Positions 290-62,600 of a DNA stretch of 64,000 nucleotides are shown here, in pieces. The stretch lies in assembly GCA_048213135.1 (NCBI GenBank), contig PS015217.1, positions 84,802-148,801 of the forward strand, written 5' to 3'. This DNA is from Reclinomonas americana ATCC 50394 (lineage: Eukaryota). The notes beneath the pieces were generated by a model that was not told the DNA's origin, made no database searches, and worked only from the letters and a program-made list of their open reading frames with translations. The position numbers and the translations under genes are program-made. The stretch's first letter is position 1. Every line of letters starts with the position of its first letter.

Positions 290-3200
290 AGGAGTGCGAT
301 GAGCTCGACGCCAATGACGTGTGGGCCATTGTGACGTCGTACTTTGCCGGCAAGGGTCTCGTGCGCCAGCAGCTCGAGTCGTTCAATCAATTCGTGCGTT
401 TCGACATGGGCAAGCTGGTCAGCGAGGTGCAATTGCGCATCTCGATGACCGACCGGCCCGCCGACGCGGCACCCGACGACGAGAGCGAGGAGCCTGTGCG
501 GTCACACATTATGTTTGGCAAGCAGATCAAGGTCGCCTGGCCGTCGGTCCGCGAGGCCGACGGCACGCCGGGCACCGGTCATTTGCACCCGAACGAGGCG
601 CGCCTGCGCAACCTCACGTACGCCACTCGTGTGGAAATCGACATTGAGTTGGTGCAGGAGCTGGCCAGTGGGGCCAGCAAGCGGGAGACACAGCCGGCGT
701 CGCTCGGGCAGGTGAGAATGGAGGAGAGATGGGGAAGGGGAGGGAGAAGGAGAGGGGAGAAGGAGAGGGGAGGGGGGAAGGAGAAGTGGATGAAGAAGGG
801 AAGAGTTTAGGAGTGTGGTGTGTTATAAAGACGTGTTCTTTGTTACGATTGCTCGCTTCTGCTCTCGCTCTCGCTCAGTGTGTCGCTCTCGCTCTTGTCG
901 TTTTCTCGCTCTTGTCGCTCTCGCTCTGTATCGCTCTCTCGCTCTGTATCGCTCTCTCGCTCTGTATCGCTCTCTCGCTCTGTATCGCTCTCTCGCTCTG
1001 TATCGCTCTCTCGCTCTGTATCGCTCTCTCGCTCTGTATCGCTCTCNNNNNNNNNNNNNNNNNNNNGCTGTCACGCTCTCGCTCTGTGTCGTTCTCGCTG
1101 TCACGCTCTCGCTGTCACGCTCTCGCTCTGTGTCGTTCTCGCTCTGTGTCGTTCTCGCTCTGTGTCGTTCTCGCTCCGTATCGTTCTCGCTCTGTATCGT
1201 TCTCGCTCTGTGTCGCTCTCGCTCTGTGTCGCTCTCGCTCTGTGTCGCTCTCTCTCTCTCTCTCTCTCCCCATCTCTCCCTTCCTTCTCTCTCTCTCCCT
1301 TTCCCTTCAGTACCCTTCATTCCCCTTCCCTCACCCCCTTCCCCTCCCCCGCAGGTCCCTGTGATGGTCCACTCGGACTACTGCGTACTGAAGAGCTACG
1401 ACGAGCGGAGACTTGCCCGCGTGGGCGAGTGTGTGTTCGACCCCGGTGGTTATTTCATCGTCTCGGGCTCCGAAAAGGTGCTGATCGCGCAGGAGAACAT
1501 GGCGGCGAACCACGTGTACGTGTTTGCCTCCAAGTCCAATCCCAAGTACGCCTACACGTGCGAGCTGCGAAGCACCAAGGAGCTGGGTCGCATGGCTGGT
1601 ATGCCGCACTTTGTGCGCCTCGTGTCCAGCAAGCGATCAGTTGCGCCGACGATTGTCGTTACCCTTTCCCTCCTCTCCACACCCCTCTCATCATCCCTTC
1701 CTCCGTCTTGCAGAAAACCTCGGCCGGTCAGGAAATCACGGCGCAGGTGCCCTACATTCGTGTGGAGGACCTGCCGGTGGTCATCTTGTTCCGCGCCCTC
1801 GGCAACACGTCCGACAAGAGCATTCTCGAGCGCATTCTGTACGAGTTCAACGACTCTGAAATGATGGACATGCTGCAGCCGTCGCTGGATCGTGCCCTGG
1901 CCATTCAGACCACGGACGTGGCGCAGGATTACCTCGCCAAGCGTGCCGAGTTCGACTTCAAGACCAAGGCGGAGCGTATTGCGCACGTCAAGAACATCTT
2001 GCAGACCAAGCTCCTCCAGCATGTCGGCACGGAGCCGCATTTGGAGAACAAGAAGTCGTTCTTTATCGGCTACATGGTGCATCGACTGCTGCAGGGCGCC
2101 CTGCAGCGTCGCCAGCTCGACGATCGCGATCACTTGGCGAACAAGCGGCTCAACTTGGCCGGCCCTCTCATGGGTCAGCTGTTTTACCAGCTGCTGACGG
2201 TGTGTCTTCAATGCCAAGTTTTTTTCCCGCACGTAATCATTGCGCTGACCTTCTGTTCTGTCCACAGCGCGTGCAAAAGGACCTGACGATCAAGCTGCAG
2301 AAGCAGGTGGACAAGGGCCAGCCGTTGATGCCTGGCACCGCTTGCAACGACACCATCATCTCCAAGGGTCTCAAGTACTCGCTGGCCACGGGCAACTGGG
2401 GCGGTCAGGTGCGTTGTTTTTGCGTCTCTTTTTCTTGATTGAACTGCCACCCGTTGTTGTTGCTGACTCCTTCGTCTACTTGCAGGCTGGCTCCGCCGAG
2501 GTGAAGACCGGAGTGTCCCAGCTGCTGAATCGTCTCACCTTTGCCGCGTCCCTGTCGCACTTGCGTCGACTGACGACCAGTATGGACAAGTCCAGCAAGG
2601 CCGCCAAGCCGCGCCAGCTGCACAACACGCAGTGGGGAGTTGCGTGCGGCGAGGACAAGAAGTTCCATTCATATGCGTGCAGTGTGCTGAGGGTTTTGCT
2701 CGTTGTGTGCCAGATGGTGTGCCCTGCCGAAACACCCGAAGGCTCCTCTGTCGGTCTGGTGAAGAACATGGCACTCATGTCCACCATCAGGTGCGGTGGC
2801 GATTCACACCAATCTTGTGTGCGTTTGTGTGTGCTCACTTTTGTCCTCTCTTTTGATTCGTCGCAGTGTGAGCATTGAGGGCGCCACGGTGAAGAGCATT
2901 CTGTCGCAACTCGGTCTGCAAGAGTTCCAGGAAATCCGACCGTCCATGGTGGCCCGGACGGAGAAGGTGTTTGTCAATGGCGAGTGGGTCGGTGTCTTCC
3001 ACGACGCCAAGAGGTTTGTCCATGAGCATCTTTTCCCCAAGGATGCCGGAGGTTTCTCATGCGCGCGACAGTTTGGCGGACTCGCTGAGGCGAGTACGAC
3101 GAGGCATGCACCAGTCGGAGGGTCGGCAACACGACTACTCGCAAATCTCCATCTCGCACGACGTGCGTGAGAAGGAGCTGCGCATCTGGACGGATCAGGG

Positions 3201-5638
3201 TCGCATTCTGCGTCCGCTGCTGGTCGTGGACGACCAGACTCGCGAGCTGGTGGTCAAGCACTACCACGTGTACCCGATGCTCAAGAGCGATCAGCAGCAG
3301 GAGGGCGTGGACAATTGGAAGTGGTTGGTCAATCACTCGATGGTGGAGTACCTGGATGCCGAGGAGGAGGAGACGTGCATGATTGCCATGTTCCCGTCGG
3401 GTGAGCAAGGGGGGGAAAGAGGGGGAGGGGGGGGGGAGGGAAAGGGGAAAGGGGGAGGCAGGGGGGGAGAGGGAGGGAGAGGAGAGAGGAAAAGGGGGAG
3501 GGAGGATAGAAACTTGCATGTGTGCGCGTGTGTGTGTTTACTTGATAGTCCTTCTCTCTCTCTCTCTCGTTCTTTGCGCCTGACCGTTGTCTCCGCAGAC
3601 GTCAAAGAGGATCGCGACACGTTCAAGAAGGGCCTGCCCGCGGAGCAAGTGCAGTGCAAGAACTTTACGCATTGCGAAATCCACCCGTCCATGATTCTCG
3701 GCGTCGGTTGCACCATTATTCCGTTCCCCGATCACAACCAGAGTCCAAGAAACACGTACCAGGGCGCTATGGGTGAGTCGATCGCAGCGAGAATCCCCAA
3801 CTCGCAGTGCGACTCACTCTTCATCCCGCTGCACACACACACACACAGGCAAACAAGCTCTTGGCGTGTACGCCACCAATTACCACTTGCGCATGGACAC
3901 GACGGCACACGTGCTGTACTATCCGCAAAAACCACTGGTGCGTTCGCATGCGCTGCGCTACCTCAAGTTCCGCGATTTGCCGGCCGGCATGAATGCGGTG
4001 GTGGCCATTGCGACGTACACCGGGTACAACCAGGAAGATTCGCTCATTCTCAACCAAGGTGCCATTGATCGCGGTTTCTTCCGCACGGTCTACTACCGTG
4101 GCTACATGGAGCAGGAGAAGCGACGTGGCAGTGCGCAGGAGAGGATTTGCAAGCCGCACAATGAGAGGACCAAGGGCAAGCGCAAGTCGGCGACCTACGA
4201 GAAGCTGGATGTGGACGGTGTTATTAGGGTGAGTGGGGACAAGGGGGAAGGGACGGGGAGGGGAAAGGGAGAAGAGGAGAAGGGGGAAGGGGGAAAAGGA
4301 GAAGAAGAAGGGGGAAGAGCGAAGGGTGGAAATATGGAACAGAGGAGTGTCGGAATTGAAGAAGAAGTGGCCGAGTGGGAAAGAAACGAAAGACAAAGAG
4401 GGAAATTAAGAGGAGGGCTGGGGAAGAGTGGACCGTATATCTAGGACGGAAACGATGATGGTGGTACGAGAGAAGCTCTGGGTTGTGTGGTAACGTCGAG
4501 TTTGTTGTAGTTGTAGTTCTCTCTCTCTCTCTATGTGTATGCGTGTGTTAGTCACGTTGACATGTCAGTCTGTTGCATATTCTTTCGTGAGGCGTTGAAT
4601 GTGCGTTGGAGTACTGAGGTGGGGTGCTCTTTGTCTTGCTTCCTGCTTGTCGCTCCCTGCTCGTCGCTTCCTGCTCATCGCTTCCTGCTCGTCGCTCTCT
4701 GCTCGTCGCTCCCTGCTCATCGCTTCCTGCTCGTCGCTCTCTGCTTGTCGCTCTCTGCTTGTCGCTCTCTGCTTGTCGCTCTCTGCTTGTCGCTCTCTGC
4801 TTGTCGCTCTCTGCTTGTCGCTCCCTGCTTGTCGCTCCCTGCTTGTCGCTCCCTGCTTGTCGCTCCTGCTTGTCGCTCCCTGCTTGTCGCTCCTGCTTGT
4901 CGCTCCCGTGCGTTGTCGCTCCTGCTTGCTCTCCTGCTCGTCGCTCTGCTGTCGCTCTGTCATCTCGTTCTGCTCCGTCCTCCTGCCTCGGTCGCTCCTG
5001 CTTGTCGCTCCTGCTNNNNNNNNNNNNNNNNNNNNNNNNNNNNNNNNNNNNNNNNNNNNNNNNNNNNNNNNNNNNNNNNNNNNNNNNNNNNNNNNNNNNN
5101 NNNNNNNNNNNNNNNNNNNNNNNNNNNNNNNNNNNNNNNNNNNNNNNNNNNNNNNNNNNNNNNNNNNNNNNNNNNNNNNNNNNNNNNNNNNNNNNNNNNN
5201 NNNNNNNNNNNNNNNNNNNNNNNNNNNNNNNNNNNNNNNNNNNNNNNNNNNNNNNNNNNNNNNNNNNNNNNNNNNNNNNNNNNNNNNNNNNNNNNNNNNN
5301 NNNNNNNNNNNNNNNNNNNNNNNNNNNNNNNNNNNNNNNNNNNNNNNNNNNNNNNNNNNNNNNNNNNNNNNNNNNNNNNNNNNNNNNNNNNNNNNNNNNN
5401 NNNNNNNNNNNNNNNNNNNNNNNNNNNNNNNNNNNNNNNNNNNNNNNNNNNNNNNNNNNNNNNNNNNNNNNNNNNNNNNNNNNNNNNNNNNNNNNNNNNN
5501 NNNNNNNNNNNNNNNNNNNNNNNNNNNNNNNNNNNCTCTCTGCTTGTCGCTCCCTCGTATGTCTCTTCCTGCCCGTCGCTCTCCACTCCCTGCTCGTCGC
5601 TCCACTCTGTGCTCTCTATCACCTCCCTTCCTCTCATT

Positions 5639-5672
<34 letters not shown>

Positions 5673-6320
5673 TCACTCACCACCCTTCCCTTTGTTCCTC
5701 TCTTTCTCATTGTCCCGCCTCCCCTCCCCGCAGCCCGGCACCCGCGTCTCCGGCGACGACATTATCGTCGGCAAGACCGCGCCAATCTCACTGGCCGAGG
5801 AGGAGGCCGTGATTGCATCGGCGAGCAGCGCCATTGGCCGCGTGCAGCGCTACGACAGCCGCGATGTGTCGCTGCAGTTGAAGGAGACGGAGAATGGCGT
5901 GGTGGATCGCGTCATGATCTCGACCAGCGACACGGGCGACAAGATTGTGCGTGTGCGCATGCGCAACGTGCGCATTCCGGAGATTGGTGACAAGTTCTCG
6001 TCGCGTCACGGACAAAAGGGCACTTGTGGTATCACGTACCGTCCCGAGGTTTTGTTTTCTCACGCTTCCTGCGTCCATTTTTTTTTTGTACCGCGTGAAC
6101 TTATCATCATCCTTGGGCGCAGGACTTGCCATTCACTTGTGATGGCATTAATCCGGAGATTGTCGTGAATCCGCACGCCATTCCGTCGCGTATGACCATT
6201 GGTCAGCTGATTGAGTGCCTCATGGGCAAGCTCAGCTCTCTGCAAGGCACAGAGGGCGACGCCACTCCCTTCCAGAAGACGGTGGATGTGGTGGACATTA
6301 GCCGGAAGGTTCACATGGCC
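290..6320 (+). CDS. RPB2: RNA polymerase II second-largest subunit (5' end upstream, 3' end lost in N-gap)
   Basis: Exons 290-711, 1355-1639, 1714-2199, 2268-2408, 2486-2638, 2714-2790, 2867-3013, 3072-3400, 3599-3772, 3849-4228, 5734-6048, 6123-6320 splice in frame via GT-AG. Motifs: [121 protein letters not shown]. Confidence 0.97.
907..1250. repeat. Intronic 18-bp minisatellite (TCGCTCTGTATCGCTCTC and variants)
   Basis: Direct tandem copies in RPB2 intron 712-1354, interrupted by a 20-N gap. Confidence 0.9.
4643..5015. repeat. Intronic ~14-bp minisatellite (CTGCTTGTCGCTC[T/C])
   Basis: Tandem copies in RPB2 intron 4229-5733 running into an N-gap. Confidence 0.9.
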
Positions 6321-6864
6321 NNNNNNNNNNNNNNNNNNNNNNNNNNNNNNNNNNNNNNNNNNNNNNNNNNNNNNNNNNNNNNNNNNNNNNNNNNNNNNNN
6401 NNNNNNNNNNNNNNNNNNNNNNNNNNNNNNNNNNNNNNNNNNNNNNNNNNNNNNNNNNNNNNNNNNNNNNNNNNNNNNNNNNNNNNNNNNNNNNNNNNNN
6501 NNNNNNNNNNNNNNNNNNNNNNNNNNNNNNNNNNNNNNNNNNNNNNNNNNNNNNNNNNNNNNNNNNNNNNNNNNNNNNNNNNNNNNNNNNNNNNNNNNNN
6601 NNNNNNNNNNNNNNNNNNNNNNNNNNNNGGGAGAGAAGGGAGAGAAGGGAGAGAAGGGAGAGAAGGGAGAGAAGGGAGAGAAGGGAGAGAAAGGCATGGA
6701 GGGAACGAAGGGAACGGAGAGAAAGAAGGGAAAGAAGGGAAAGAAGTGAAAGAAGGGAAAGAAAGCAAGAAGGACAAGAAGTGAACGAAAGGAAGAGGGA
6801 AAAGATGGGGATGGAAAAGTGAGATGCAGGCAAAAAACGGAGGAGAGGTTGTATGGGGCGCAAC

Positions 6865-7686
6865 TTGCGATGGCGTTGTCGGCTGCGACGACGAGCTCGA
6901 CAAGTCACCATCCGAGTCGTACGACATGGAGCTGGAGGGACCAGCGGCAGCAGCTGACGCAGGAAGGGAATTTTAGCGGTGGAGAATTAGGGGAATGACA
7001 ACATCAGTCGGGCACAAACCGAGCGAGTATGATGATGGAGGAGGACGCGCGCTGGCCGACATGCCACCGGCATCTAACACACAAATGTAAGCGAAAAAAC
7101 AAACGACAACTTCGGTTTGCAGCAAGACACACTGTACCTCCGACACGATGCACACGGCGCATGACATCTTCGCGCTGGCGAGGAATCGACAGTCCTTCGG
7201 GAACATTCGGCGGGCGCGCCAGCAGCGTCGCGTAGGTGCCGTACAGGCGCGTGCACAGAGTGAGTGCAAATCGCGCATTGTTGGTGAACTGGGATGCAAC
7301 TGGTAAGCATCACGCGTCAAAGACAACAACTCAAAATGGACAGACGCGTACCGCATCAAAGGACGCATCGGGCGCCACTTGCTGGCCAAGACGGCTCTTG
7401 GCGGCGTCCAGCTTGCGCACCTCCATCAGATACTGCGTGCAGTCGTATGCGTTCAAGCGCTCTTGCTGGCCGAACGAGTGCACCAGGAAGCAGCTGTGAA
7501 GGGGAGGGCGAAAGGGGAGTGTGAGGAAAGGGGAAGGGGAAGGGGCGAGGGAGGAAGAGAGGGAGGGAGAAAGGGAGGGAGGTGAAGGTGAATGGGAGGG
7601 CAGAGGAAGGAAGGAGGGAGAGAAATATACGCAGAGAGAGAATGAGAGAGAGGGAGAAAGAGAAAGAGAAAGAGAGAGAAAGAAAG

Positions 7687-7722
<36 letters not shown>

Positions 7723-8855
7723 AGTAGAGAGTAGTANNNNNNNNNNNNNNNNNNNNNNNNNNNNNNNNNNNNNNNNNNNNNNNNNNNNNNNNNNNNNNNN
7801 NNNNNNNNNNNNNNNNNNNNNNNNNNNNNNNNNNNNNNNNNNNNNNNNNNNNNNNNNNNNNNNNNNNNNNNNNNNNNNNNNNNNNNNNNNNNNNNNNNNN
7901 NNNNNNNNNNNNNNNNNNNNNNNNNNNNNNNNNNNNNNNNNNNNNNNNNNNNNNNNNNNNNNNNNNNNNNAGAGAGAGATTGAGATGGAGATTGAGCTCG
8001 TAAGAATGAGAGCGCGAGTGGAGGGGGAACGAGGGAGAAGTGACGCGAGGGAAGAGAGAGGAAGAGAGCGAGAGATAAACACAGACACACCAAAGGGAAC
8101 GCACGGCAGATAACAGACGCAGTGACTGAGACACTGACACACCCGATAAGAGCAGAGACAGCCACAGAAGACAAGGAAGAGATCGACGCAAGCACAGCGA
8201 GAGGACGTGGAAGAGCAGGAGTGAGCGAAAAAGAGAATACGAGACATAAAACACAGCGTGCCAACATCTGCAAACGCACCCAGCCCACAGGAATCCATCG
8301 CCAAATGAGTGAATCGGCGTGGTAATGCTTCCGGGCTCGGCTTGGCGATCGGGAGCGTTGACGCAGAAGATCTGCAGCGCGATGAGCGGATGCCTCGACA
8401 AAGAGACAGAAGCACACGAGATGTTACGCAACAAACATCAAGAAACTCCACAGACGGTAAAACGCCTGCGGTGAATCAATGGCCACAATACGGTCGGGGG
8501 CGTTGATGCCGCCCCAGTGCGTTGCCACCTCTCGCACCGTCATCTGCAGGCGCTGCAGGGCGGCTTGGGCGGCGGACGAGTCGCCGCGGGGAAGGTACAG
8601 GTTCACTGCGGGTGAGAGAAGGGGGATGAGAGAGGGAGAGGAAGGGGGGTGAGAGAGGGAGAATGCAGGTAAGGGAAATACAGGACGGGGAGAAGAAGAG
8701 AGAAAGCGAAGGGAGAGGGCGGGAGAGAATATAGCACAGGAACAAGAGAAGAGAATAAAGGAGGCAGAAGGAGAGGAGGGGAGAAGAGAGAGGGAGTGGG
8801 GCAGGGGTGGGAATGGGAATGGGAGAGCAAGAGAGAGAGAGAGAGAGAGAGAGAG

Positions 8856-8922
<67 letters not shown>

Positions 8923-11900
8923 TAGACGTACGTACCGTACCGACCGTCGTTCGTTGTAGTAAGTAAGTAGTCGTACTACGTACGTACTTACTTCCTCCGT
9001 TCCCGTCCCGTACCTANNNNNNNNNNNNNNNNNNNNNNNNNNNNNNNNNNNNNNNNNNNNNNNNNNNNNNNNNNNNNNNNNNNNNNNNNNNNNNNNNNNN
9101 NNNNNNNNNNNNNNNNNNNNNNNNNNNNNNNNNNNNNNNNNNNNNNNNNNNNNNNNNNNNNNNNNNNNNNNNNNNNNNNNNNNNNNNNNNNNNNNNNNNN
9201 NNNNNNNNNNNNNNNNNNNNNNNNNNNNNNNNNNNNNNNNNNNNNNNNNNNNNNNNNNNNNNNNNNNNNNNNNNNNNNNNNNNNNNNNNNNNNNNNNNNN
9301 NNNNNNNNNNNNNNNNNNNNNNNNNNNNNNNNNNNNNNNNNNNNNNNNNNNNNNNNNNNNNNNNNNNNNNNNNNNNNNNNNNNNNNNNNNNNNNNNNNNN
9401 NNNNNNNNNNNNNNNNNNNAAAGAGAAGAAAGAAGGGAGAAGGGACAAAGAGAGGGAAGATGAAACGGAGATAAGGGTAAGAAGGAGAAAGGAACGAAGA
9501 ACGAAAGGGAAAGGGAGAGAGAGAGCGAAAAAAGAGAAAGTGAGAAAGAATGAAAGGAAAGAAAAACAAGAAACCTACGACTCTGGCGAACGACAAAGGA
9601 GGACACGCGAATGCAGCAAAGAGAGAAAGAGAGAGAGAGAGAGCGAGAGAGCGAGCGAGAGAAGGGATATTGAGAAAAATAGAAAACTTACTGAACGAGA
9701 CTGACAGTCAGATACGTTGCAGAAAGAGAGTCGCACCTGCCGCAGCAAAAGTGGCGACCGGCAACTTGACCGAAGCCGGCAGACCGCCCTTGAGCTCGGC
9801 AATAAACGGACCCATGCTGCTCGCCATCTGCAAGCGAGAAAAACAATGATTATCGATTCTCACTCTATCTCCCATTGACATGCAGGCGTACCGTCTGCGA
9901 CACGTAGTTTGTGGTGTCGTTGAGGACCAGCGCAAAGGTCGACGGCTTCATGATGCGAATCAGTGACACCATGTGCTCGTAGCCAAAGTACGTCGAGCGC
10001 TGCTGGATGATGCTGCTGAAGGCGTCCTTGAAGGCCTGTGCTCGAACAGTGTGAGTGTGAATGAACACCGCAGCCTTCTGTCTCCCTCTCTCCCTCTCTC
10101 ACCTTGGTGCCATACATGTACATGGACCGCAGGCGCTGCACACGAGAGCGCTTGTAGTCGGCGTTGGTCGAGGTGCGCACAAAGCGCTGCGTGTCGGTGT
10201 TGTAGGCGAAGCACGGGAAGATGTCTTGCACCAGCTCAAAGTACACCTGATCGAACAAGGCAAAGAGTCAACTTTCAAGCACGCATCGCACTCGTCAACT
10301 TCCTGCACTGGAACGCAACATGGCGGGAGATGCGCGTGTCAAACGCCACCAGCGACACGCCCTCATTGGCCTCGCTCATAATGTCCTCCCACGGATCCAT
10401 GGTCGGCAGCTCCTCTCGCAGCGCAGCGTGCGTCAGTCGCAGAGTGGTCAGCAGCGATTCAAATTCCTGTACAGACAAAGTGAGGGATACATCACACACA
10501 CACACACACACACACGACTGCAAAGCTGTGTGCAACGCACGTGGATCTGGCACAAATCGCGAGCCTCAAAGAGCGTAATGAGCTCGTCGAGGTTGTTGCG
10601 GATTTCGTAGTTGAGGCGCTGCGTGAGCAGGGCGTGCAGGTCGACGGTTCGGCCCAGCAGCTGCGCGTGTCGCTGGCACATGAGGATACCGTAGCGGCTG
10701 CGCGGCGGCAGGAGGCGCGTCGGGCGCATCTTGCCCTTCTTGATCTGCTCACGGGCGCGCAGGCGTGCTTCCTCGATGCCCAGCAGGCGGTAGTATTTGT
10801 CGAGTAGGATGCTGCGAGGAGAAGGGGATGCGAGGGGAAGGGATGATGGGATTTGCGAGAGAAGAATGAGATGCGAGGGAAGGGAGACCGATACGACACG
10901 CCCCGCACATCGAAGGCCAAGCCAGAACAAGCTCTTCCCAAAAATGCACACTCACCTCGCCGCATGAATCTTGGCATTGGTGAGCACCTGCTCCGTGAGA
11001 CGGAAAATGAACTGCTCAAACACCAGGTTGAACTCGGCCTCGATTTCGTCAAACAGGAAGCGACGCTTCAGCGAGTGGAGTGCGCGAGAGGCGGCATCGT
11101 TGTAGACGTCGAACAGATACAACATGGACTCCATGCCTGCAGCATCGCGGCGATCCAACACCGTGCGGCCGAGGACCCACGGCGGCGACATGTCAATGGG
11201 GAACTAGTGCACCGAGGGGTCAGACAGGCGCGGACTCTGGGGTCTCTATCTCGCTCTATTTCGTTCACCTGAATCACTTTGGCCACCTCCAAAAAGAACT
11301 CGCGGTACCACATCTCGGCCAGATCGCCAATCTCACGAACCGTGCCTGTCACGAGTGGGAAGGGAGTGAGAGAACGAACGTGTGAAGATGACGGCAGAGT
11401 CCTCTCCGTCGCAACTGTCAAACGCCAGCAGGTAGGGGAAGTAGCGGCTCTTGTCGTAGTACTCCGACATCTCCTCCACGAACTTGGACTTCCAGTCGTT
11501 GGACGAGAAAATGCCACTCTTGCGCTGGCCCGGATTGCGGTCGGTGAAGAGCGTGCTCAGCAGCGCGCGGATGAGGAACAGCTGCGAAAGTGGGCAATGG
11601 GGGGAATCGTGAGAAGATTGAGGAGAGGGGGGAAAGGGAGAGGGAGAGAGGGGGAAGGGGAAGGGAGGGAGNNNNNNNNNNNNNNNNNNNNNNNNNNNNN
11701 NNNNNNNNNNNNNNNNNNNNNNNNNNNNNNNNNNNNNNNNNNNNNNNNNNNNNNNNNNNNNNNNNNNNNNNNNNNNNNNNNNNNNNNNNNNNNNNNNNNN
11801 NNNNNNNNNNNNNNNNNNNNNNNNNNNNNNNNNNNNNNNNNNNNNNNNNNNNNNNNNNNNNNNNNNNNNNNNNNNNNNNNNNNNNNNNNNNNNNNNNNNN

Positions 11901-23169: not shown

Positions 23170-26100
23170 ATGCGCGATGTGAGCAGCCTCCTCGCCTCGC
23201 CTCTCTACGGCCTCGTGCAACAGCTGAACAATGCCTGTGACGATGGCGAGTACATTCGCCTGCTCGTGCACGAGATGCCGGCGGAGGTGGCGGCGCGAGT
23301 GGCGGCTGCTCCGTTTGTGCGCGCAAAGGCCACGCAGTGTGTGCGGCGTGTCGTGGCGGCGTGGCGTGCGGCGGAGATGAACAGGTCGATGTCGACGACG
23401 CCGGTGGAGGACAATGGCAAGTCGCAGCAGTGGTTGTTGCAGACGTTGCGTGGCGGAGACAACTCGCAAACTGATAAGTGATTGACGCCCGATGCACAGT
23501 GCGCATCCGTTCCCGCACCTGGCTGCTCTGATGGCCACCACCACTGATGCCAGCAGCAGCGGCAGCAGTAACGACGATAGGGAGCAGCGAGTGACGGCAC
23601 TGGTGGAGGAGTGCGCTGCAGAGGTGGGCGAGGATGTTCTGCTGCTCTCGGCGCATGTGCCGTCGCTGTTGGCGGTCACGCAGGCGTGGTTGGCGCTACC
23701 GGAGGAGGCTGCTGCTGTGGCGGTTGATGCAGCGCACGTGGCGCAGGAGCTGTCTGCGATCGGGCGTCATTTGCGACGAGCGGCTGTGGTGTGTATCGCG
23801 ATGATTGCATTGTTGGTGTGCCTCTTCGGCGATATAACAGTGACGATGCAGGTGCCGCCGGTGTTGTTCCCGCGGCCTCCGTCGCTGCGATTGCCTCCGT
23901 GTCCACCGCTCCCACTAGCCGCGAGTGTGGGGAGTACGTTTGGTGCGGCGATGAGAGTGTTACAGCGGTCGCGAGCGCAGCTGGGCGATCGGGAGGAAGC
24001 ACTGCGTCGTGCCTGGCGTCACTACCAGCAGCTGGAGAATGCCACCGATCCCGCCAGTGTCTTTGGTGGGTCGAGGACGCCGCGGTGAGTGAAGGGAAAG
24101 AAGAGGGAGAAGGGAGGGAGAGAGGGCAGGGAGACAAGGGATTCTTGTCGCTCCTTCCCTCAAAGTGTGTGCTTACCAAACCACAGCCTCGATCCCACCG
24201 CACTCGGGGCTTCCACAGCGCAAGTCGGTCGCCAACTGGCGTGGGAGCTCACGGAACAGCGACGCCGTGCTGTTGCCTGGCCGGGTGCGTCTTTACCATC
24301 ACTCAACTCGTTTCTTTCTTCCCCTCACTGTGCGCTGCAGTGTGGCGACAGTTGTTGACCGATTGCATGATGACACCGCGTGCGCTCCTGTTGGCGCGCT
24401 CATCACTCGCTCGATGGGTGGCAAGGCTGTTGGTTTCCTTGCAGCTCCCGCGTACGTGCCTTGCTGTCGTGTCCAGTGCGCGCGTACGGCCGTATGGAGC
24501 GCGATGCTTGGTGTGGCTGGTGCTTGCGTGGCTCTACTATTCTTCTCTCCGTCAGTCTTCGCCACCTGCTGCGCCCGCCGCGACTGCAGACATTACGCCA
24601 CTCGTGGACACCACGGTGGAGGCCGCCGTACGAGATTTGCTCGAATCCGCGGAAGACACCAGGAGGAGTCAGCCGAGTGGTGAGTGTGAATGCACGGTCA
24701 GGCTTCAACACGTTTCCACCGTAAGTGACCTTGTGTTGCAGCACACTTGGAGGCCCTGTGCGAATACATAGACCGTGAACTCGTCGCCGCGGCGTCTGGC
24801 AGCATGCAGTCGCAGCTGACGCACCATGCAGCCTCCGAGTTGCTTGTGCATCTCGTGAGCGATGTCACACGCGAACGTGAGGATGATGAAAGTGCGTCTC
24901 GTGGTTCTCTGGTTGATGCATATTTGCCTTCCTTCACCACCAACATCTTCAACTCATTGCAGACGTGGTCACCGTCGGCAACTTGCGGGAATTCTCTGAC
25001 GGCGCGCTACTGCTGGCGACCCTCTGCAGCTGCTTGCGACCCTTGGTCGACATGCAAGTACCGGAGGTTTTGCTTTCGGCTATGCACGCGGTACTGTTGA
25101 GTGTGGTGGCAGTGGGTGTCGACGACGGTTCTCTGCTGTGTCGCATTCGTGAAGTGCGCCTGCGACTTGTGGATACACTACATGTGCTCGCCTCATGGCT
25201 GCGTGAGAGCCACGGCAGCATGAACGGTTTGTGTTCCTCACCTCCGCCATGTACGGCAAGCGCTGTTGTGTTAACTGCGATCTCTCTCTTGCAGATGATA
25301 GCATAAATCAGTTGTTGGAGTGGACGGCGATGCGCGATTGCTGCGGTGTGCTGCCGTTTGGTGATCCGAGTGACAGGTCGGCATTGTGGTGCGTGCAGAG
25401 ATCGACAACCAAGATGATGATTGCGAGATGCGTGCTAACTGGCGCGCTCAGGTACCCGTCGCTGTATGATCCCACAATCGGCCGATTTCGCGCCTTTCTG
25501 CCGCTCACTCCGGTCGTGCATTCGCGCCACCTCGGTATGTGTGTAGTACGCGCGGGTGGGTCGATGGTGCGCATTTCTCATGCAATCTACTTGGTGACAA
25601 GAAGAGAGCGAAGCGGTGGACGACGTGTTGCTGGCAACATGCGATCGCGCCGTCCGCGATATTCTCCCGTGTGCCACCAAAATGGGACACGAGTTGCTGC
25701 GCGGCAACGGTGTGCTGCTGCAACCAGATACGTCGCCCATCAATGTGGCCTTTGTGAGGTGCGTTACTGCAGAAATGCGCGTTTTGGTGCCCACACTCGT
25801 TGACGTCACGCGCCCGCAGAACGGATCGCGCTGAGACTCACATGAGTGGAGGTGCGGGCGGGCGCGATCCGCACTCGACTGCCACACACGTCATGCAGTC
25901 ACTTTTTCGTGTGTTGGTGGCGCCTGTTGTGGACAAGTTTCGAGACGTGCTGGCAGTCGACGACACCGACTTGGTACGCATGTATGGTTGAGTGGCACGC
26001 GCGTGCCACACGCTCATGTGGCATCACCTTTCGTGTCCACAGCACTTTGCTCGACAAATGGCGCACGACGCGAAGCGTGTGTACTTGGGTCGTGTGTTGT

Positions 26101-28489
26101 GTGCCGAGGAGGATCAGCGAACTGCGCTGCTGACAGAGTTGACATCCTGCGTGCCGCTTGTGCAGTCGCACATTGCGAACGCACTCTGCGCTGGCGATGC
26201 TGCGGTTGAGCAGCTCAGCGACATTCTCTCGCAAGTGTGGTCACTGCTGGTGTACCCGCTGTTGGTTGACATGCGCGCCTCTCGACTGTGGCAAAAATCT
26301 GCATTGCCGTCAGGCGAATCGCCGTCCATGTTGGCACGCAGTTTGTGCGACACGACGCTTCTCGGTCGACTGCTTGAGCAGGTCGACTTGCAGCTGCCGT
26401 TGGTGCACGGCGTGCGATGCGTGGACGAGTCAGCGGCGAAGACCCAGTTCGCGGGGGGTGCCGTTCGTCGCGGTGAGTCCACCGAGTTACTATCCGTCAT
26501 CGGGTCCATACCCACTGGATTGCACAGGTGTTATTGAGGCAGGAGAAGAGTGGCAGGCAAGTCGGCAGGCTGAGCTGGGTGCGTTATGTGTGAGAAGAAC
26601 GGAGATCCGAGTTGCGTTGTTGAGCTGAATTACTTTCTCATTCTCACAACACAGTGATGCGCGAGGCCACGGTGGCGGCCTCGGCCAGCCTGCTGTTACA
26701 GTCGCCTCGCGAACAACAACCGAAAATGGATGTGCTGGCAGCCACGCTGGAGGAGCGACGGCGTTCACGATTCACCGAAGCCGATGCGGCATTCTTGCAG
26801 GTTTGCTGTTGCGGCACTTTTTGCCTCGACTTCCGTGATCTCACCGCGCTGTCGGTGCAGTTTCTGAGCGACACGAATCGCCCTGCCTCGGTATATGTGC
26901 TGGCGAGGAGTCAACAACCGGAGTTGTGGAATCGCACGGTGGAAGCATACCACCAGTGCCGCGGGCTAGCAGTCGACCACCTCATTGCATGGTTGGCAGA
27001 TAGCTGCGTGCGCGGACAAAGTACGGAGATGCAAGCACGGTCCTCCAAGCAGCAAACGCTGCTGGACGTGTTGCAGTGGTGGGCGTGTGAGGTCGATGTC
27101 ACCTTGTTGACAGCTGCTGCCGAACATCAGTCGCCGCCAGCGACTGTTGTGCTGCAGCACACTGTTACCGACCAGTCGATGATGGCCAGCAGTGGTGCAT
27201 CTGCGTCGAGAGGCAGCACATTTGGGGATGAAGTGGCACGATTTGTGGCGCTTCATGCAGCTGTGGGATCGGATTGGTGGACAGTGTTGCGCGATGCTGT
27301 CGATCGTCTCAATCATCGACTGTGGCGGTGGCGGGATCAGCAGCAGTTTATTGCGGTTTCGTTCACCTCCGTCTGCCACCACTAATGCTTGTGGTAGGAG
27401 TGTTGAATGCAGCCTGTGCAGGATGAGGAACAATTCTGCCACTGGCAGGCGGTGCCGGAAGGTGGTGATGAGGCATCATCGCTCGCTGAAACACAGTCGA
27501 CTGTGATTTCGTATCTGGTTGCCGCCGTGCAGCATCAGGCCACCTGGCTGTCGCTGCGCATGCTGCGCGATGGGCGATTTCTGCACGCAGTGGAGGATGA
27601 GGACGGTGATCGCAAACGTGCAGAAGGCAACAGGGATGGTGGCGACGCCTTGTGGCCGCCAGTGGTGTTTGGCGCTCAGCCTGCTGCGTCGCTGAGTGAG
27701 AGTGGTGGCGAGTGCACGGTATCGCGGGAGGTTTGTCTCTCTCTTAAGGGGGTGAATAGGGTTTGTCGTGCGTTGTTGCTCATCGCCGACTTGCGAACAA
27801 GTTGCACGACCTGGCTGACGCTTGCCGCTCGCGAGGTATTCCAGGTGTGTATGTTTGAGGAGGAGAAGGGGCTTTGGTTTTGCAAGATCAGATGATGCTG
27901 CTTGATCACTCAACATATACACAGTGGCCAGCGAAGGGAAACTGGCGCCGACACATGGACTGGTGCTCTGCAGTGTCGTGAGCCACTTTGTACCGTCGGT
28001 AAACGATGAACTGGCGTGGCGACGGCTGGAGGCAGTTCGTGGGCGCCGGAAATGCCCGCCGACGACATACCGATCGCCTTTGAACTGGCGTCACGACGTT
28101 CTCTGGCTGGAGAAGTTGATCAATCTGCCAATGACACCGCAGGTGAACGACTGGCTTTGTTTGCACTCTGTGTTGTCGACACTGAGAAAATTGTTGCAGC
28201 GGCGACAGCAGCTGTTGGACACATACATCACAAAGTCACTGTGGCCGCGGGCCACTTGGGCTGCCGTGTGTGCGTACGAGACCGCCGAGGGCATGTTTGC
28301 ACGTCAGCATGCAGTGAACGCAGGGTGGTGGAACCGGCATGCTGCGGCTGCGCGGTGAGTACATCTCCAATTGCTTCATGGTTGTGTGATCGCTCTCTGA
28401 TTCTCACACATTATCACAGCAATGTTATCTGGCAACTGGCATTGGAGAGCACTGACGCCACCACACAACCGGAGACCGCAGCCAGGTGA
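23170..28489 (+). CDS. Large multi-exon Leu/Ala-rich protein of unknown function
   Basis: Run of coding-like ORF blocks separated by short GT-AG introns (e.g. 23445-23499, 25974-26042, 26579-26654, 27356-27421, 28355-28419) from ATG 23170 to TGA 28489. No family motif recognised; not every junction was resolved. Confidence 0.65.
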
Positions 28490-28752
28490 TACTTTGCCTC
28501 TGACCAGCGCAGTGGCGCGGGAAGAAGGCCGCATTGGTGGCAGAAAGCAGCCCGCAATCGACTGATGTCTCGTCAAATTGATGACGAAGTCGTACCCTGG
28601 CCTGGAGACTGTGTAATTAAACAGTTTCAATGGCAGGCACCAGCACAAGCAGTAGTCTTCATTCATAATAGTAATTGAAACTTCACCGATCCATACACAA
28701 CAATGAGCATCTGCCAGTGATCGCCAACAAATCTTATGTGTATTTAGACGTC

Positions 28753-28778: not shown

Positions 28779-35470
<6,692 letters not shown>

Positions 35471-36516: not shown

Positions 36517-36591
<75 letters not shown>

Positions 36592-37408
36592 NNNNNNNNN
36601 NNNNNNNNNNNNNNNNNNNNNNNNNNNNNNNNNNNNNNNNNNNNNNNNNNNNNNNNNNNNNNNNNNNNNNNNNNNNNNNNNNNNNNNNNNNNNNNNNNNN
36701 NNNNNNNNNNNNNNNNNNNNNNNNNNNNNNNNNNNNNNNNNNNNNNNNNNNNNNNNNNNNNNNNNNNNNNNNNNNNNNNNNNNNNNNNNNNNNNNNNNNN
36801 NNNNNNNNNNNNNNNNNNNNNNNNNNNNNNNNNNNNNNNNNNNNNNNNNNNNNNNNNNNNNNNNNNNNNNNNNNNNNNNNNNNNNNNNNNNNNNNNNNNN
36901 NNNNNNNNNNNNNNNNNNNNNNNNNNNNNNNNNNNNNNNNNNNNNNNNNNNNNNNNNNNNNNNNNNNNNNNNNNNNNNNNNNNNNNNNNNNNNNNNNNNN
37001 NNNNNNNNNNNNNNNNNNNNNNNNNNNNNNNNNNNNNNNNNNNNNNNNNNNNNNNNNNNNNNNNNNNNNNNNNNNNNNNNNNNNNNNNNNNNNNNNNNNN
37101 NNNNNNNNNNNNNNNNNNNNNNNNNNNNNNNNNNNNNNNNNNNNNNNNNNNNNNNNNNNNNNNNNNNNNNNNNNNNNNNNNNNNNNNNNNNNNNNNNNNN
37201 NNNNNNNNNNNNNNNNNNNNNNNNNNNNNNNNNNNNNNNNNNNNNNNNNNNNNNNNNNNNNNNNNNNNNNNNNNNNNNNNNNNNNNNNNNNNNNCGCCTC
37301 CAACTCCGCCACACGCTGATTCAGCTGCTGTGTGGGCACTCCGCCTCCCCCACCTCGACACACAGCACCCATTCGTGGCAATCAATCCGTGTCCTGCAAC
37401 CCTTTGTT

Positions 37409-40043: not shown

Positions 40044-41220
40044 TCTCCATCTGTCACTCCGTCCTGCAATCCATTGGATGATTGTTCCCGTGGTTTGCCG
40101 CCTTCGTGCGAGTGAACCACCTGGTGGCTTCCTCCAACCCCGATTCTCCCGCCCACCCTCCCTGTGGTTGGACAGTTCTGTGGTGCGGGGTGTGTCGTCG
40201 TTGTTTCGTGGTGGTGGCGGTTCGACTCGGCTTCGCCACTATTTACTTGGACCGTCGTGTTCTCTGGCGGACTTTACCGGTGGAGTCTCTTGCCAGGCAG
40301 ATGTCGGTGACTGTGGCGACTGTTTAGGTCTTTGTCGCACGCTGTTGGTCTGTCTCGGTGCTTGTGGTGCACGAGTCAGCAGCCTTGGGCGCGAGTGGTC
40401 CCTTCCGGAGGTACTTTTTCCCACTGGGTTTTGTCCTCCTCGTTCCTGTTGTGGAGCGCATCACTCGTCGCTGGCTGGGAGGTGAGGTTGGAAGGGTTTG
40501 TCCCGACCTCCACCACGGCGTGCTTTGTTGTTGTCACCTTGGACGGTCAGATGTTGGTGGCGCTGCGATCGCGAGCGACTTGTCTGTGGCACGGGTCTCG
40601 CGACTGCGGGGTGGACCAGTGTTGGCCACCGCACTTGGTGTTGTTTTGGGTTTTCTTGCTTCTTGAGGGCGGGATGTAGGGTTCCTCGAGCATGCATTGG
40701 TGATGCCTGGTTTGCCTTTCCTTTTGTTGTGTAGAGCATGCTGCCCCGAGCATGTGGATGGGCGTGTGTGCGTCACCTGGTGGTTGTTGTGGGTTATTTC
40801 CTGCCTGTATCTGGGTGTGGCAGGCGTGTTTTTGGTGTTTGGGCGGGTGCTGAGTGCCCGCCGAGGGTGTTTGTGGGTGCGAGAGCACGAGCGGGTTGTG
40901 GTGACCAGCGAGTTGTTTGGTGCACACACGCCCCGTGCTGGTCACCTGTTTCTAGTTTTATTGTGTTTCGCTTGCAGCGATTGGTTATTTTCCTGTGCTG
41001 CGCTGGCTCGTCGTTGCCAGTGCCGCGCACGTTCTTTCGATAGTTAATCGAGTAGAAGGGGGCACGTAAAATACAGTCAAACAAAGTCATTTATTACTGC
41101 TGTTGGCATGTTGCTGTCATTGGTTTGGTGCGGTGCTGTCGTCGAGTGAGGTTCGGCGGCATCATTGTTGGTATCTCGGCTGGCTAGTGGCAGCACTGTG
41201 AGAGGAGTGACAGATGGAGA
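40044..41220. mobile_element. Putative non-autonomous element or remnant bounded by inverted repeats
   Basis: TCTCCATCTGTCACTCC (40044-40060) and its exact reverse complement (41204-41220), with further degenerate inverted similarity outward. Interior is strand-skewed (G/T-rich on +) with no recognisable ORF. No target-site duplication found. Confidence 0.35.
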
Positions 41221-41559
41221 CTGTTCTGTATAACGACGGAGGCAGTCATCCAAATGCTAATAGTTTCTCGCAACCTGTTGGCGAGAAGCTTGGTTGGTGA
41301 ATGTTGTTGTTGTCGTATCCGATCGCTGCTTCGTGCGACGTCGATGTTTTCAACTTCGGTCATACTGCGCTGCGCTTGGCCGGGATTGCAGCATTCTCAC
41401 GATCAGCGTAGCTGCACTGAGTCTGCGGCTGCACGACTGCGACCTTCTGTGAGTCAAATACCGATCGACGGATCGTGTCCTACGACAAAACAAAAACCGA
41501 GTCCGAGTCGTCAGCGCGCAACAACGTAACTGCTTAAGTCTGCGTGTGTTGGTGAGCGG

Positions 41560-41604
<45 letters not shown>

Positions 41605-42142
41605 TCACACTCTTGTCTAAAATCACAGCACCCATCACCAGCTTGCATGGCTTGTGCGCAAGGCGCGCATGGCCGAGTGCCAACAGCCGAGCNNNNNNNN
41701 NNNNNNNNNNNNNNNNNNNNNNNNNNNNNNNNNNNNNNNNNNNNNNNNNNNNNNNNNNNNNNNNNNNNNNNNNNNNNNNNNNNNNNNNNNNNNNNNNNNN
41801 NNNNNNNNNNNNNNNNNNNNNNNNNNNNNNNNNNNNNNNNNNNNNNNNNNNNNNNNNNNNNNNNNNNNNNNNNNNNNNNNNNNNNNNNNNNNNNNNNNNN
41901 NNNNNNNNNNNNNNNNNNNNNNNNNNNNNNNNNNNNNNNNNNNNNNNNNNNNNNNNNNNNNNNNNNNNNNNNNNNNNNNNNNNNNNNNNNNNNNNNNNNN
42001 NNNNNNNNNNNNNNNNNNNNNNNNNNNNNNNNNNNNNNNNNNNNNNNNNNNNNNNNNNNNNNNNNNNNNNNNNNNNNNNNNNNNNNNNNNNNNNNNNNNC
42101 CCCCTTTCCCTTCCCCCTACTTCCCTCTCACCCCTCCCGCAG

Positions 42143-58238
<16,096 letters not shown>

Positions 58239-58698
58239 CCATCTCACTTGCACCTTGAGATAATACAGGAGGGCTCTCGAAATTTGATCGATCGCATTCG
58301 CGAGTGTGACTGCAACACTGATTTCGCAGCATGCCGTGGTCGTCTCAGTGCCTGGATGGTCACGCGGACGTGCGTCATTTTTCCAGGTTTATTGAAAGTG
58401 CACGCACAAGATTCACGCAAGTGACATGCTCTTCTGCATTTGTGCACTCCACTGCAATGGGTTTCCGAAGAGGTCAGCTTCACATTGATTTCCAGACGAA
58501 TTTGAAGTGGATTTTCAGCGCGCATGTGTTGTCTTTGGAGTGCTTCTGGTCCTCCACGCAACCGACACTCGTGGGCATTCTCTTCGCTGATATTGATCGC
58601 TGGGCCTCCACTGAGAAGCATGGGTCGAAGAAAAATTAGACTTGTGCAACCAATTTTCCAATTGGCCGATTGGTCATCCAACAAGTCCGACCCCCTGC

Positions 58699-59442
<744 letters not shown>

Positions 59443-59601
59443 GAGCGCCTCCTTTCTTTTCACGCCTTTCGCACTGAACACACACAAAGACACACACGCG
59501 TGCGCATTCATACGTGCCTCAGAGTCAAGCAGTGTGAGAGTGCGGGAAAATAGAGGCATCTCTTCTTTCATCGTCATTTTTTTCAGTCTTCGAGCCGCGA
59601 C

Positions 59602-62600
59602 ATGCCCAAGTGTGACTCTTCTGCCCATTCGCTCATGTGCCCTCGCCGCCGCCATCACTCGCGCGCGTCGCCGTGGGCTTGCGCAATGATATTGACTTTT
59701 GCTGTTGGCTTCCTCTCGCTGGCGCATGGCGCGAGTGCCACTGTTCCTCCAAGTTGCGTGTGCGACTGTGCGTGTGTGTACCTTGGTATGTGTCTCTCGA
59801 TGTGTGTGCGCGCGACCGTTTTTTTGCAATTGGCAGAAATGTGTGTGTTTTGGGGTCATGAGTGCGTTCGCGGGGGGTGGTGTCAAATCTAGACATGCAC
59901 ATTTGTGTGCGCCGGTGCGTGCATTTGTGAGTGCGGTGGTGCGCTGAATGCAGTGTCGATGAGAGCACGCGCGCGCATGTGAGAGAGAAATCGAAATTTA
60001 TCATCCATTTCTTCTCTCACGCACGCACATTTTCTCTCTGTCTCGCACGCACTCTCTGTCTCACTCTCCTCCACGCTCGCACTCTGAGCAGAAAGGGGAG
60101 AATGGTGCTTTTATGTCAAGTGCATTGCCTCACTCGCACTGTCTCACTCACACACTCGCTCTCCCTCTTTGTACACACGCAGTGTGCAGCAGCGGCAGCC
60201 AGCCAACCACGTACTGGGCAAGTGCGACGCTCGCTGTCGGTACCTGCACTGGCACATGGACGACCATTCTCAACTCCACAGCGGCTGCGCTGTGTGCCAC
60301 CAACTACTGGATCTGTTCCTACACAGATGCTGCGCCAAACGCACTTGGTTTGGTCGACTACACCCAGGCCATCGCGGTGGCTGGCTGCTTTGCGTACCGC
60401 GCGGCTGATGACGGTGGAACATGCAAGCAGCTCAACTTCTCCGACAGCAATGCCAATGAAGTCGCTGGCATTGGCGCCCAGTGCTCGTGAGTGCCGTTCC
60501 TCTGTCTCCTCACCCCCGCCTCTGTTCCTCCCTCTCTTGCCCCCGCCTCCGTCTCTCCTCTCTCTCTCCCCCGCTCCGTGTCTCCTCCCTCTCTCGCCCC
60601 CGCTCCGCGTCTCCTCTCTCGCCCCCGCTCCGCGTCTCCTCTCTCGCCCCCGCTCCGCGTCTCCTCTCTCGCCCCCGCTCCGCGTCTCCTCTCTCGCCCC
60701 CGCTCCGCGTCTCCTCTCTCGCCCCCGCTCCGCGTCCTCCTCCCTCCCCCGCGCCGTGTCTCCTCCTCTCTCGCCCCCGCTCCGCGTCTCCTCCCTCTCC
60801 CCCCCCCCCGCTCCGCATCTCCCCCCTCGTCCCCGCTTCGTCTCTCCTCTCGCCTTCAATGTCTCCTCCTCTCGCACCGCCCTCCATTCTGCCGTGCTTC
60901 GCACTCGTCCATCCCCCTCTCTGAAACCAGTGCCTTCCGCATTTCATGCCGTCTCATTTATTGTGCATGCAGAGCTCAAGGAGCCACGGCAACCAGTTGC
61001 TTCGGATCGGGCCTCGGTCGCATCGATTACGCCCAATCGAGCGCGAGCGGCGCCCGAAATACCGGTTTCTCGCCTGGTGGCGTTGTTTGCTGCGGACCGG
61101 CCACCAACAGCGCTCCTACGGACATCAGCTTGAGTTCTGCGACATATGTTGCTCCCTCGGTCGCGGGAGTTGTTGTGGGCACGTTGTCGACCACCGATCC
61201 AGACCCGATCGACACCAGCTTTACATACACCATCACGGGAGGCGCCAATGCAGCCAACTTTTCAATCTCGTGCGTCTGTGCCTGCCTGTGTAATCACTTA
61301 TTTCGGCTGCGTGTGCTATTTGCCACTAACTCCGTACGCTCCCTGATCCGTGCAGAGGCTCGACACTGTCCATCGTCACTGCGGGCCTCACGTCGACGTC
61401 GTTGTCTGGTGACGTTACGCTCCATGTGAGGCATCTTTATCATTGGGCGACTCATTGTTATTGCGCTGTCTAGTAACTGTGACGGCCAACGACGGCAAAG
61501 GAGGAACGTTTGCAAAAGCGTTCACCATACCCTCCATCAATAATGCGCCTACGGCGATCACGTACCTGGGTGCTCCGTGGTATCTGGGCCCAACGCCGAC
61601 TGCTGGGTATTTGGTCGGCGTCTTGTCGACGACAGATGTAGACTCGCAGCAGTCGTTCACATATGCCATTGTCGGCGGTGCGAACGCATCAAACCTATCC
61701 ATTGTCGGAAACAGTCTCTACATCAAGAATAATGGACAAAATGGCAATCTGGTGGTCAACATTCAAGTGACGGACAATGGCGTGCCTCCGCAGTCGTACA
61801 CTCAGTCATTTACGCTAACTCGTTGCGTTCATTCTTCGCCTTTTTCTGTTCACATGTATTTTGAGCCTCATCACCCACGTGTGCCTCAGCAAACACCGCT
61901 CCGTCCTCTCCGACATTGACGCCAACGACATATCCTCCTCCGCTAGCCTTGAACGGAGTGATCGGCACACTATCTGCAACGGATGTGAACTCTGGACAGA
62001 CTCTCTCGTACACGATTACGGGTGGCACCAACGCTGCGTCATTCAACATCAGTGGCACGAGTCTGCGATCGAATGTTGCTGGCCTCACTGGCAATGGCCT
62101 GCAAGTGATTGTGCAAGTGAGTGACGGAGTTGGTGGAACAGCAAGTGCGACATTTACCATCAACGAAGGTCAGTGTGCGATGAAGCTGTAGCTGTTATGG
62201 TTTACGATTTACCGTTTTCTGCAGTCAATGTTGCACCTTCTGCACCGACGCTGTCAAGCAACACGTACGCGGCGCCTCTCGCCATGAATGGCGTGATCGG
62301 CACGTTATCGTCGACGGATGGGAACACCGGGCAGACACTGACATACACGATTACCGGTGGCACGAACTCGGCGTCGTTCAACATCAGCGGCACGAGTCTG
62401 CGATCGAATGTGGCTGGCCTCACTGGCAATGGCCTGCAAGTGACTGTGCAAGTGAGCGACGGAACGTTGACAGCGAGCACCACGTTCACCATCAACGAAG
62501 GTGCTTTTTTGTTCATTGTCTCCTTCTTGGTCAGTTCTTTGCCTACGCGACGCTCAACGCGCCATGTCACTATGCAGTTAATATTGCGCCAACTGCGCCG

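Follow-up and report, generated by a model that had tools for sequence, protein, structure and literature searches.

In a 64,000 nt stretch of the Reclinomonas americana ATCC 50394 genome (assembly GCA_048213135.1, contig PS015217.1, positions 84,802–148,801, forward strand; hereafter the window, with coordinates counted from its first letter), GT-AG introns carry two mutually exclusive forms of donor (5′ splice site), and the choice between the forms is coupled to the last base of the exon. Donors that follow a G are here called G-class. The second form reads GTT(G/T)CG or GTTGAG, follows an exon ending in A, C or T (abbreviated H), and is here called T-class; a slash outside brackets marks the exon–intron boundary.

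The association is clearest in a high-confidence set of 46 introns, of which 23 were placed by homology and 23 by paralogy. Nine of these introns follow a non-G exon end, with the donors GTTGCG (7), GTTTCG (1) and GTGCGT (1). The remaining 37 follow G and include no T-class donor, 18 of them reading GTG(A/C)GN and 19 having other sequences. T-class donors therefore account for 8/9 non-G ends against 0/37 G ends (2 × 2 table 8, 0 and 1, 37; Fisher p 3.4e-8), and the association is present in each subset, with p 1.8e-4 in the genes RPB2 and CYFIP alone and p 5.6e-4 in the repeat-unit arrays alone. The ratio of T-class donors to GTG(A/C)GN is 8 : 1 after non-G and 0 : 18 after G (p 4e-6).

An initial annotation of the window listed 29 donor sites, and all 29 hexamers are present with coordinate and strand correct. 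Of these, 28 follow A, C or T (24 GTTGCG, 3 GTTGAG, and GTTTCG at 50387), which agrees with the proposal that the form occurs only after a non-G exon end. The companion proposal, that donors after G are varied, is borne out by GTGCGT, GTGAGT, GTTTGT, GTCAGT and GTGAAC among the placed introns; G-class donors tolerate nearly any bases at +3 to +6. After G, a T or C at +3 is frequent, as in GTTTGT, GTTTTG, GTTTGA, GTCTGT and GTCAGT (13653, 12629, 3014, 45660, 6049 and others).

Position counts over the 28 listed sites give A 12, C 9, T 7 and G 0 at −1. At −2 there is A in 12/28 with the rest mixed, and the exon side is without signal. On the intron side, +3 is T in 28/28, +4 is G in 27/28, +5 is C in 25/28 (A in 3), +6 is G in 28/28 and +7 is T in 20/28. 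The donor word can therefore be written GTTGCGT, or GT followed by the core TGCGT, which in the main class starts at +2. The intronic consensus thus sits one base deeper in the intron than in the main class. Description of the motif as the main consensus with one T inserted holds for the displaced core, and the T at +7 carries the correspondence one base further, as it answers to the +6 T of GTGCGT found in 36/56 G-class sites. However, C predominates at +5 in the T-class, whereas C and A are about equally frequent at the corresponding position of the main class; the T-class is therefore not merely ‘consensus plus T’.

Beyond the donor, the rest of the intron is alike in both classes. When 18 T-class introns were compared with 56 G-class introns, median length was 71.5 nt versus 68.5 nt (p 0.55), pyrimidine content near the 3′ end was 0.62 in both, the acceptor −3 base was C in 17/18 versus 52/56, and a strict YTRAY branch match was present in only 9/18 versus 23/56. 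The window as a whole is intron-dense (at least 12 introns in ~3 kb of RPB2 coding sequence), with a narrow length mode (median ~70 nt among introns of up to 250 nt) and a CAG acceptor in more than 90 %. T-class introns are in this respect ordinary-looking GT-AG introns.

Placement of the introns

GTTGCG as a hexamer is not enriched in the whole window (53 copies on both strands versus 54 of GTTGCA), and the claim therefore rests on intron placement. Placement by homology employed a purpose-built protein-to-genome spliced aligner that allows any dinucleotide at the intron ends and favours GT-AG through a smaller penalty only. The queries were nine homologues of RPB2, through which the identity of that gene was confirmed, and nine of CYFIP. 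For CYFIP, a word search with the exon at 13254–13796 found no homologues, and a HMMER representative search with 14624–14998 supplied them. The T-class junctions obtained from these alignments are as follows, with motif-blind settings referring to the gene finder described below.

1640–1713, + strand: RPB2 intron, 74 nt, phase 0; exon end tca, intron from GTTGCGCC to TTGCAG; exact placement by 8/9 homologues.
2639–2713, + strand: RPB2 intron, 75 nt, phase 0, after HNTQWG; exon end gga, intron from GTTGCGTG to TGCCAG; 9/9 homologues.
11346–11415, − strand: CYFIP intron, 70 nt, phase 1; exon end aca, intron from GTTGCGAC to TGACAG; 9/9 homologues, 8/8 motif-blind settings.
10247–10319, − strand: CYFIP intron, 73 nt, phase 0; exon end cat, intron from GTTGCGTT to GATCAG; 9/9 homologues, 8/8 motif-blind settings.
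8372–8432, − strand: CYFIP intron, 61 nt, phase 0; exon end ttt, intron from GTTGCGTA to CTGCAG; 8/9 homologues.
13069–13253, − strand: CYFIP intron, 185 nt; exon end cga, intron from GTTGCGTA to GCACAG; 2/9 homologues, 8/8 motif-blind settings.
14993–16277, − strand: CYFIP donor, weaker, in a modelled intron that crosses an N gap; exon end atc, intron start GTTGCGTT; donor placed by 4/9 homologues and in 4/8 motif-blind settings.
10467–10540, − strand: CYFIP comparison intron with a non-G exon end and a donor in the ordinary register (GTGCGT); exon end cac, intron start GTGCGTTG; 8/9 homologues.

The junction at 2639 can be obtained with no other GT, and at 13253 the reading frame reaches a stop two codons past the donor. 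The listed GTTGCG at 6864, also in CYFIP, was placed as a donor by 0/9 homologues. A further 18 introns received at least 6/9 votes in the RPB2 and CYFIP runs, 17 after G and 1 after C; donors at the 17 G ends include GTGCGT, GTGAGT, GTGAGA, GTACGT, GTACGC, GTGCGG, GTGTGT, GTTTGT (three times), GTTTTG, GTCTGT and GTGAAC. Two 39 nt ‘introns’ with 6/9 votes (5809–5847, c/GTGATT, and 10768–10730, a/GCACGC to AAG) were dropped as probable alignment gaps, and a donor at 7345 (cgc/GTCTGT, 3/3 homologues in one run) was left out since its acceptors disagree. With these rows retained, the tally of non-G donors that are not T-class would rise by as many as two or three.

Placement by paralogy makes use of the repeat-unit arrays in the long genes termed ‘surface proteins’ in the initial annotation. 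A single repeat-unit exon served as a protein query in tblastn, and exon ends were projected without splice information. There were 28 matches on the + strand, of which 23, spread over the two arrays, reach the last residue of the unit, and all 23 projected ends, with the single split-codon base added, meet a GT. At 20/23 the exon ends in g and is followed by GTGAGA, GTGCGT, GTGAGT, GTCAGT, GTGCAT, GTTTGA, GTATGT and others. At 3/23 it ends in a, and the donor is GTTGCG at 44271 and 46686 and GTTTCG at 50387.

44003–53079, + strand: first array; a unit of ~92 residues per exon with the same phase-1 intron position, donor class tracking the last exon base.
44271–44334, + strand: repeat-unit intron, 64 nt, phase 1; exon end gaga, intron start GTTGCGCC; paralogue projection, 8/8 motif-blind settings.
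46686–46745, + strand: repeat-unit intron, 60 nt, phase 1; exon end gaga, intron start GTTGCGTG; end of the query unit itself, 8/8 motif-blind settings.
50387–50471, + strand: repeat-unit intron, 85 nt, phase 1, variant T at +4; exon end gaga, intron start GTTTCGTG; paralogue projection.
61946–63896, + strand: second array of the same repeat unit; junctions all g/GTCAGT or g/GTGCTT.

For each of the three T-class units, the three paralogues closest in exon DNA are all G-type. The donor form at this one homologous intron position has therefore switched on more than one occasion, and the class changes in place. Introns of the arrays are ~60–70 nt long and the units are 58–88 % identical in DNA. 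No Pfam match for the ~92-residue unit was found at E 0.01.

The third line of placement is a dynamic-programming gene finder that is blind to the donor motif. Its inputs are GT (or GC), AG, the base at acceptor −3 and a frame-aware second- or third-order coding model from long open frames; eight settings were run, and at a penalty of −6 the finder recovered 15–16 of 22 benchmark introns. With k=2 and a penalty of −6, the finder predicted 147 introns, of which 13 start with GTTGCG, more than with any other hexamer; three further predicted donors read GTTGAG, and all 16 follow a non-G base. Of the 4015 GT sites on the sense strand, 36 are H/GTTGCG, against 13 of the 147 donors predicted (binomial p 1e-9). 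As a control, the same finder predicted 118 introns on the antisense, none with GTTGCG. Among the 54 introns predicted in all eight settings, eight are H/GTTGCG and none is G/GTTGCG (Fisher p 3e-4).

Of the 29 listed donors, 22 were predicted at least once and 14 in at least four of the eight settings. Those at 1640, 27356, 32825, 34918, 43927, 59753 and 61822 were predicted in none, 1640 being confirmed by homology nonetheless. No support as donors was obtained for 27356, 32825, 59753 or 61822, and support at 20499 and 57888 is weak. The partial exception named in the initial annotation, G/GTTTCG at 27356, thus exists as a hexamer, but its use as a donor is unsupported. Many of the other non-G donors proposed by the finder are errors, for example three tga/GTGACG where the true exon extends to gaag/GTCAGT.

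A self-trained version of the finder drifted (benchmark introns fell from 15 to 12 of 21) and was replaced by the fixed model. A reinforced version, which reuses its own donor dictionary, provides a secondary count only: its 150 introns include 19 H/GTTGCG, 11 G/GTGCGT, 11 G/GTGAGT and 7 G/GTTTGT. Reinforcement raised H/GTTGCG from 13 to 19, but kept the three false tga/GTGACG and created at least one false GTTGCG donor (44866). T-class introns and candidates predicted by the gene finders are the following.

22145–22213, − strand: intron in the gene called PLAC8 in the initial annotation, 69 nt; exon end gac, intron start GTTGCGTT; 8/8 settings, gene finder only.
22267–22355, − strand: intron listed under PLAC8, 89 nt; exon end gct, intron start GTTGCGTT; 5/8 settings.
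22580–22659, − strand: intron listed under PLAC8, 80 nt; exon end atc, intron start GTTGCGTT; 3/8 settings.
23445–23499, + strand: intron, 55 nt; exon end gac, intron start GTTGCGTG; 2/8 settings and reinforced prediction.
30741–30804, − strand: RasGEF intron, 64 nt; exon end aga, intron start GTTGCGTG; 8/8 settings; the next exon starts the Pfam RasGEF domain (PF00617, 30471–30740).
30895–30984, − strand: RasGEF intron, 90 nt; exon end aat, intron start GTTGCGAG; 8/8 settings.
34812–34918, − strand: candidate intron, acceptor uncertain (GAAG); exon end aac, intron start GTTGCGTC; reinforced prediction only, 0/8 settings.
43927–43991, + strand: candidate intron, 65 nt; exon end tcc, intron start GTTGCGTT; reinforced prediction only.
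56653–56714, + strand: candidate intron, 62 nt; exon end cac, intron start GTTGCGCG; 1/8 settings and reinforced prediction.
56745–56973, + strand: candidate intron, 229 nt; exon end ctc, intron start GTTGCGTC; 1/8 settings and reinforced prediction.

Outside the list, further sense-strand H/GTTGCGT sites are present at 26611, 21767 and 22951 and may be donors of the same class.

At the level of genomic sequence, the T-class sites are real junctions: the 5′ end is GT, the 3′ end is AG, and removal of the intron restores a conserved open reading frame in the homologue alignments and in the paralogue projection. The class was initially estimated at roughly a quarter of the introns. It is indeed abundant, but its share is somewhat below that figure, at 8/46 (17 %) in the high-confidence set, 5/23 (22 %) in RPB2 and CYFIP, and 23/150 (15 %) in the reinforced prediction.

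Reading of the displaced core

The RNA or protein that reads the motif, and the register in which it does so, have to be inferred. An evenly balanced judgement is given to the reading in which these are ordinary spliceosomal GT-AG introns with two mutually exclusive donor forms, the displaced core being read by the same U2-type machinery. That machinery would read the core TGCGT in a register displaced by one nucleotide. The displaced pairing, to U1 and/or to the ACAGA box of U6, may be a shifted register, with the +1 G replacing the −1 G opposite C9 of U1, or may contain a single bulged U at +2/+3. In either case the donor would then no longer depend on the last G of the exon.

Several observations weigh against a common machinery with a displaced register, or limit how far it can be taken. 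In a duplex model, which is crude (textbook U1 5′ end, no pseudouridine or proteins, and a host U1 whose own sequence may differ), the mean predicted U1 duplex is −0.73 kcal/mol at 18 T-class sites, −2.04 kcal/mol at the same sites without the T, and −7.0 kcal/mol at G-class sites. The extra T therefore gains no U1 pairing in the simple model, and the earlier suggestion that the displaced register compensates for a missing −1 G through U1 pairing is, as originally worded, unsupported by it. Simple counting leads to the same place, as no register of H/GUUGCGU beats the canonical pairing of H/GUGCGU. Despite its weaker pairing, the T form is ~8 times commoner after non-G than H/GUGCGU in the high-confidence set, and C is the usual base at +5 (25/28) though textbook U1 would pair better with A. 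Within the repeat-unit exons, H/GTTGCG also occurs at 44866 (aat before GTTGCGGG) and 51397 (ggc before GTTGCGCA), both without T at +7 and both apparently unused as donors. The 23 repeat-unit junctions are paralogues and are not independent. Lastly, all results come from one 64 kb window with 17 N gaps and ~55 % G+C.

A dedicated reader, that is, a variant U1 (or U6) small nuclear RNA (snRNA) complementary to GUUGCGU, or a protein factor, serving about a fifth of the introns within the major spliceosome, is possible but tentative. It would account for a motif that is nearly invariant over seven positions where G-class donors are loose by comparison, for an exon side without signal, for the very weak textbook U1 pairing at T-class sites, and for a choice between GTTGCG and GTGMGN that flips completely with −1. 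However, in their 3′ halves the introns of the two classes cannot be told apart, and the classes interconvert at one homologous position, which is easier with one machinery for both. The U1 5′ end is moreover highly conserved throughout eukaryotes, which also argues against a variant. Framed as a second donor specificity of the major spliceosome, with a variant U1 or U6 segment or a protein reading GUUGCGU as a seven-base word in about a fifth of introns and the last exon base deciding the mode, the idea is rather unlikely.

A relic of intron origin is improbable. Introner elements would in principle be able to leave introns with a constant terminal sequence, and an introner-like element or other insertion that left GTTGCG at the 5′ end would need no exon G; a rigid terminal motif without exon preference could come from the end of such a mobile element. 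However, the intron bodies share no common sequence (mean local alignment scores: T-class pairs 7.9, G-class pairs 7.5, mixed pairs 7.9), the lengths equal those of other introns, and the class switches at a homologous position, where 3/23 junctions are T-class and the nearest paralogues are G-type.

An artefact of hand-made gene models, or of the chance placement of a common hexamer, is very improbable. The lack of overall enrichment, the seven listed sites that were predicted in no motif-blind setting and the false donors of the reinforced finder are what such an artefact would leave. Against it stand independent placement by nine homologues per gene, independent placement through paralogue projection, the binomial excess and the empty antisense control. 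Unusual minor-spliceosome (U12-type) introns share a rigid donor and the lack of an exon consensus with the T-class, yet can scarcely be the explanation, as the donor is not RTATCCT (three sites in the window, none at a listed donor), a motif resembling the U12 branch TCCTTRAY is found in 0/19 T-class introns, and the 3′ ends are like those of the other, major-class introns.

Other features of the window

Pfam searches with single exons identified CYFIP (PF05994, PF07159), the RasGEF gene (PF00617, PF00618), a ceramidase-like gene and an Mpo1-like gene. An Rfam scan of the window gave no matches at gathering scores, and with E up to 1 only sub-threshold microRNA (miRNA)- or snoRNA-like matches and no snRNA. 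Among the sub-threshold matches, ~150 bases at 21005–21163 match several plant-type miRNA precursor models on both strands (best 44.9 versus 80 bits); the likeliest source is a long hairpin, palindromic or of low complexity, in the large intron or spacer that follows 21322.

Repeats are common. A ~360-base trinucleotide repeat at 34124–34489, in the RasGEF gene region, reads as poly-Asn from one strand and as poly-Leu from the opposite one. Minisatellite-like repeats at 829–1300 and 4600–5000 (+ strand) flank N gaps inside RPB2 introns. Additionally, (CT)n and (GT)n microsatellites are present in many introns, and the 17 N gaps lie mostly inside repeats.

A metagenome scan for relatives yielded 19 loci, with a best identity of 55 % and none close. 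RPB2 intron positions showed nothing in common between the window and nine of these loci.

Relation to known donor classes

Pairing of human U1 with 5′ splice sites in shifted or bulged registers was reportedly described by Roca and Krainer in 2009. Tan et al. (2016; PMC4856993) present registers of both kinds, shifted and bulge +2/+3, as validated in human cells; their table has 68 predicted sites of the bulge +2/+3 type and 51 of the bulge +3 type, in keeping with the earlier statement that such donors are rare in human. As in the T-class, the core of the human sites lies one base deeper in the intron and cleavage remains at GU. However, the human registers concern dozens of sites, whereas here 15–22 % of introns are involved. 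Unlike the human sites, T-class donors are strictly tied to a non-G exon end and have a near-invariant GC core, and with textbook U1 their noncanonical register has no predicted gain in stability over the T-less site.

The other near relative is the division of donors into AG//GUNNN and NN//GURAG classes. As summarized in a review (PMC11732430), these classes show an established see-saw linkage, in which a G at −1 relaxes the demands on the intron side and a strong intron side relaxes those on −1; two-class donors are reportedly also treated in PMC9803359 (2022) and in a LUC7 study (PMC11842720). The anti-correlation of exon side and intron side is common to that division and to the T-class. 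However, the intron-anchored form is GURAG there, whereas here it is GUUGCG(U), neither GURAG nor the local GUG(C/A)GU, and only one of the nine high-confidence non-G donors reads GTGCGT. The contrast also exceeds a see-saw. Sites that are strong on both sides exist here for the ordinary register, the usual intron consensus being common after G (G/GTGMGN, 18/37), and the T form is absent there (0/37), such that the register itself depends on −1. The T-class would represent a lineage-specific extreme of the familiar division of donors into those anchored in the exon and those anchored in the intron.

Literature searches, including noncanonical registers in protists, retrieved no description of a GTTGCG/GUUGCG donor class, with supplements, which could hold splice-site tables, lying outside their coverage. 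Judged from sequence, what appears to be new is the displaced-core identity of the intron-anchored class, its abundance of 15–22 % and its strict exclusion from G-ending exons.

In the usual view there is one degenerate donor consensus and a nearly invariant U1 5′ end, and shifted or bulged registers are rare human curiosities. In the window, a displaced register appears routine, strongly selected for exons unable to end in G and mutually exclusive with an exon G. In practical terms, gene finders with a single donor matrix would misplace about one-sixth of the introns in the genome of the window’s host. If the pattern is genome-wide, it would provide a natural system in which to learn whether U1, U6 or U5 is the RNA that sets the point of cleavage. 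It would also make it possible to test to what extent the active site accommodates one more nucleotide behind GU, and to see how intron signals are shaped by coding constraints on the last bases of the exon.

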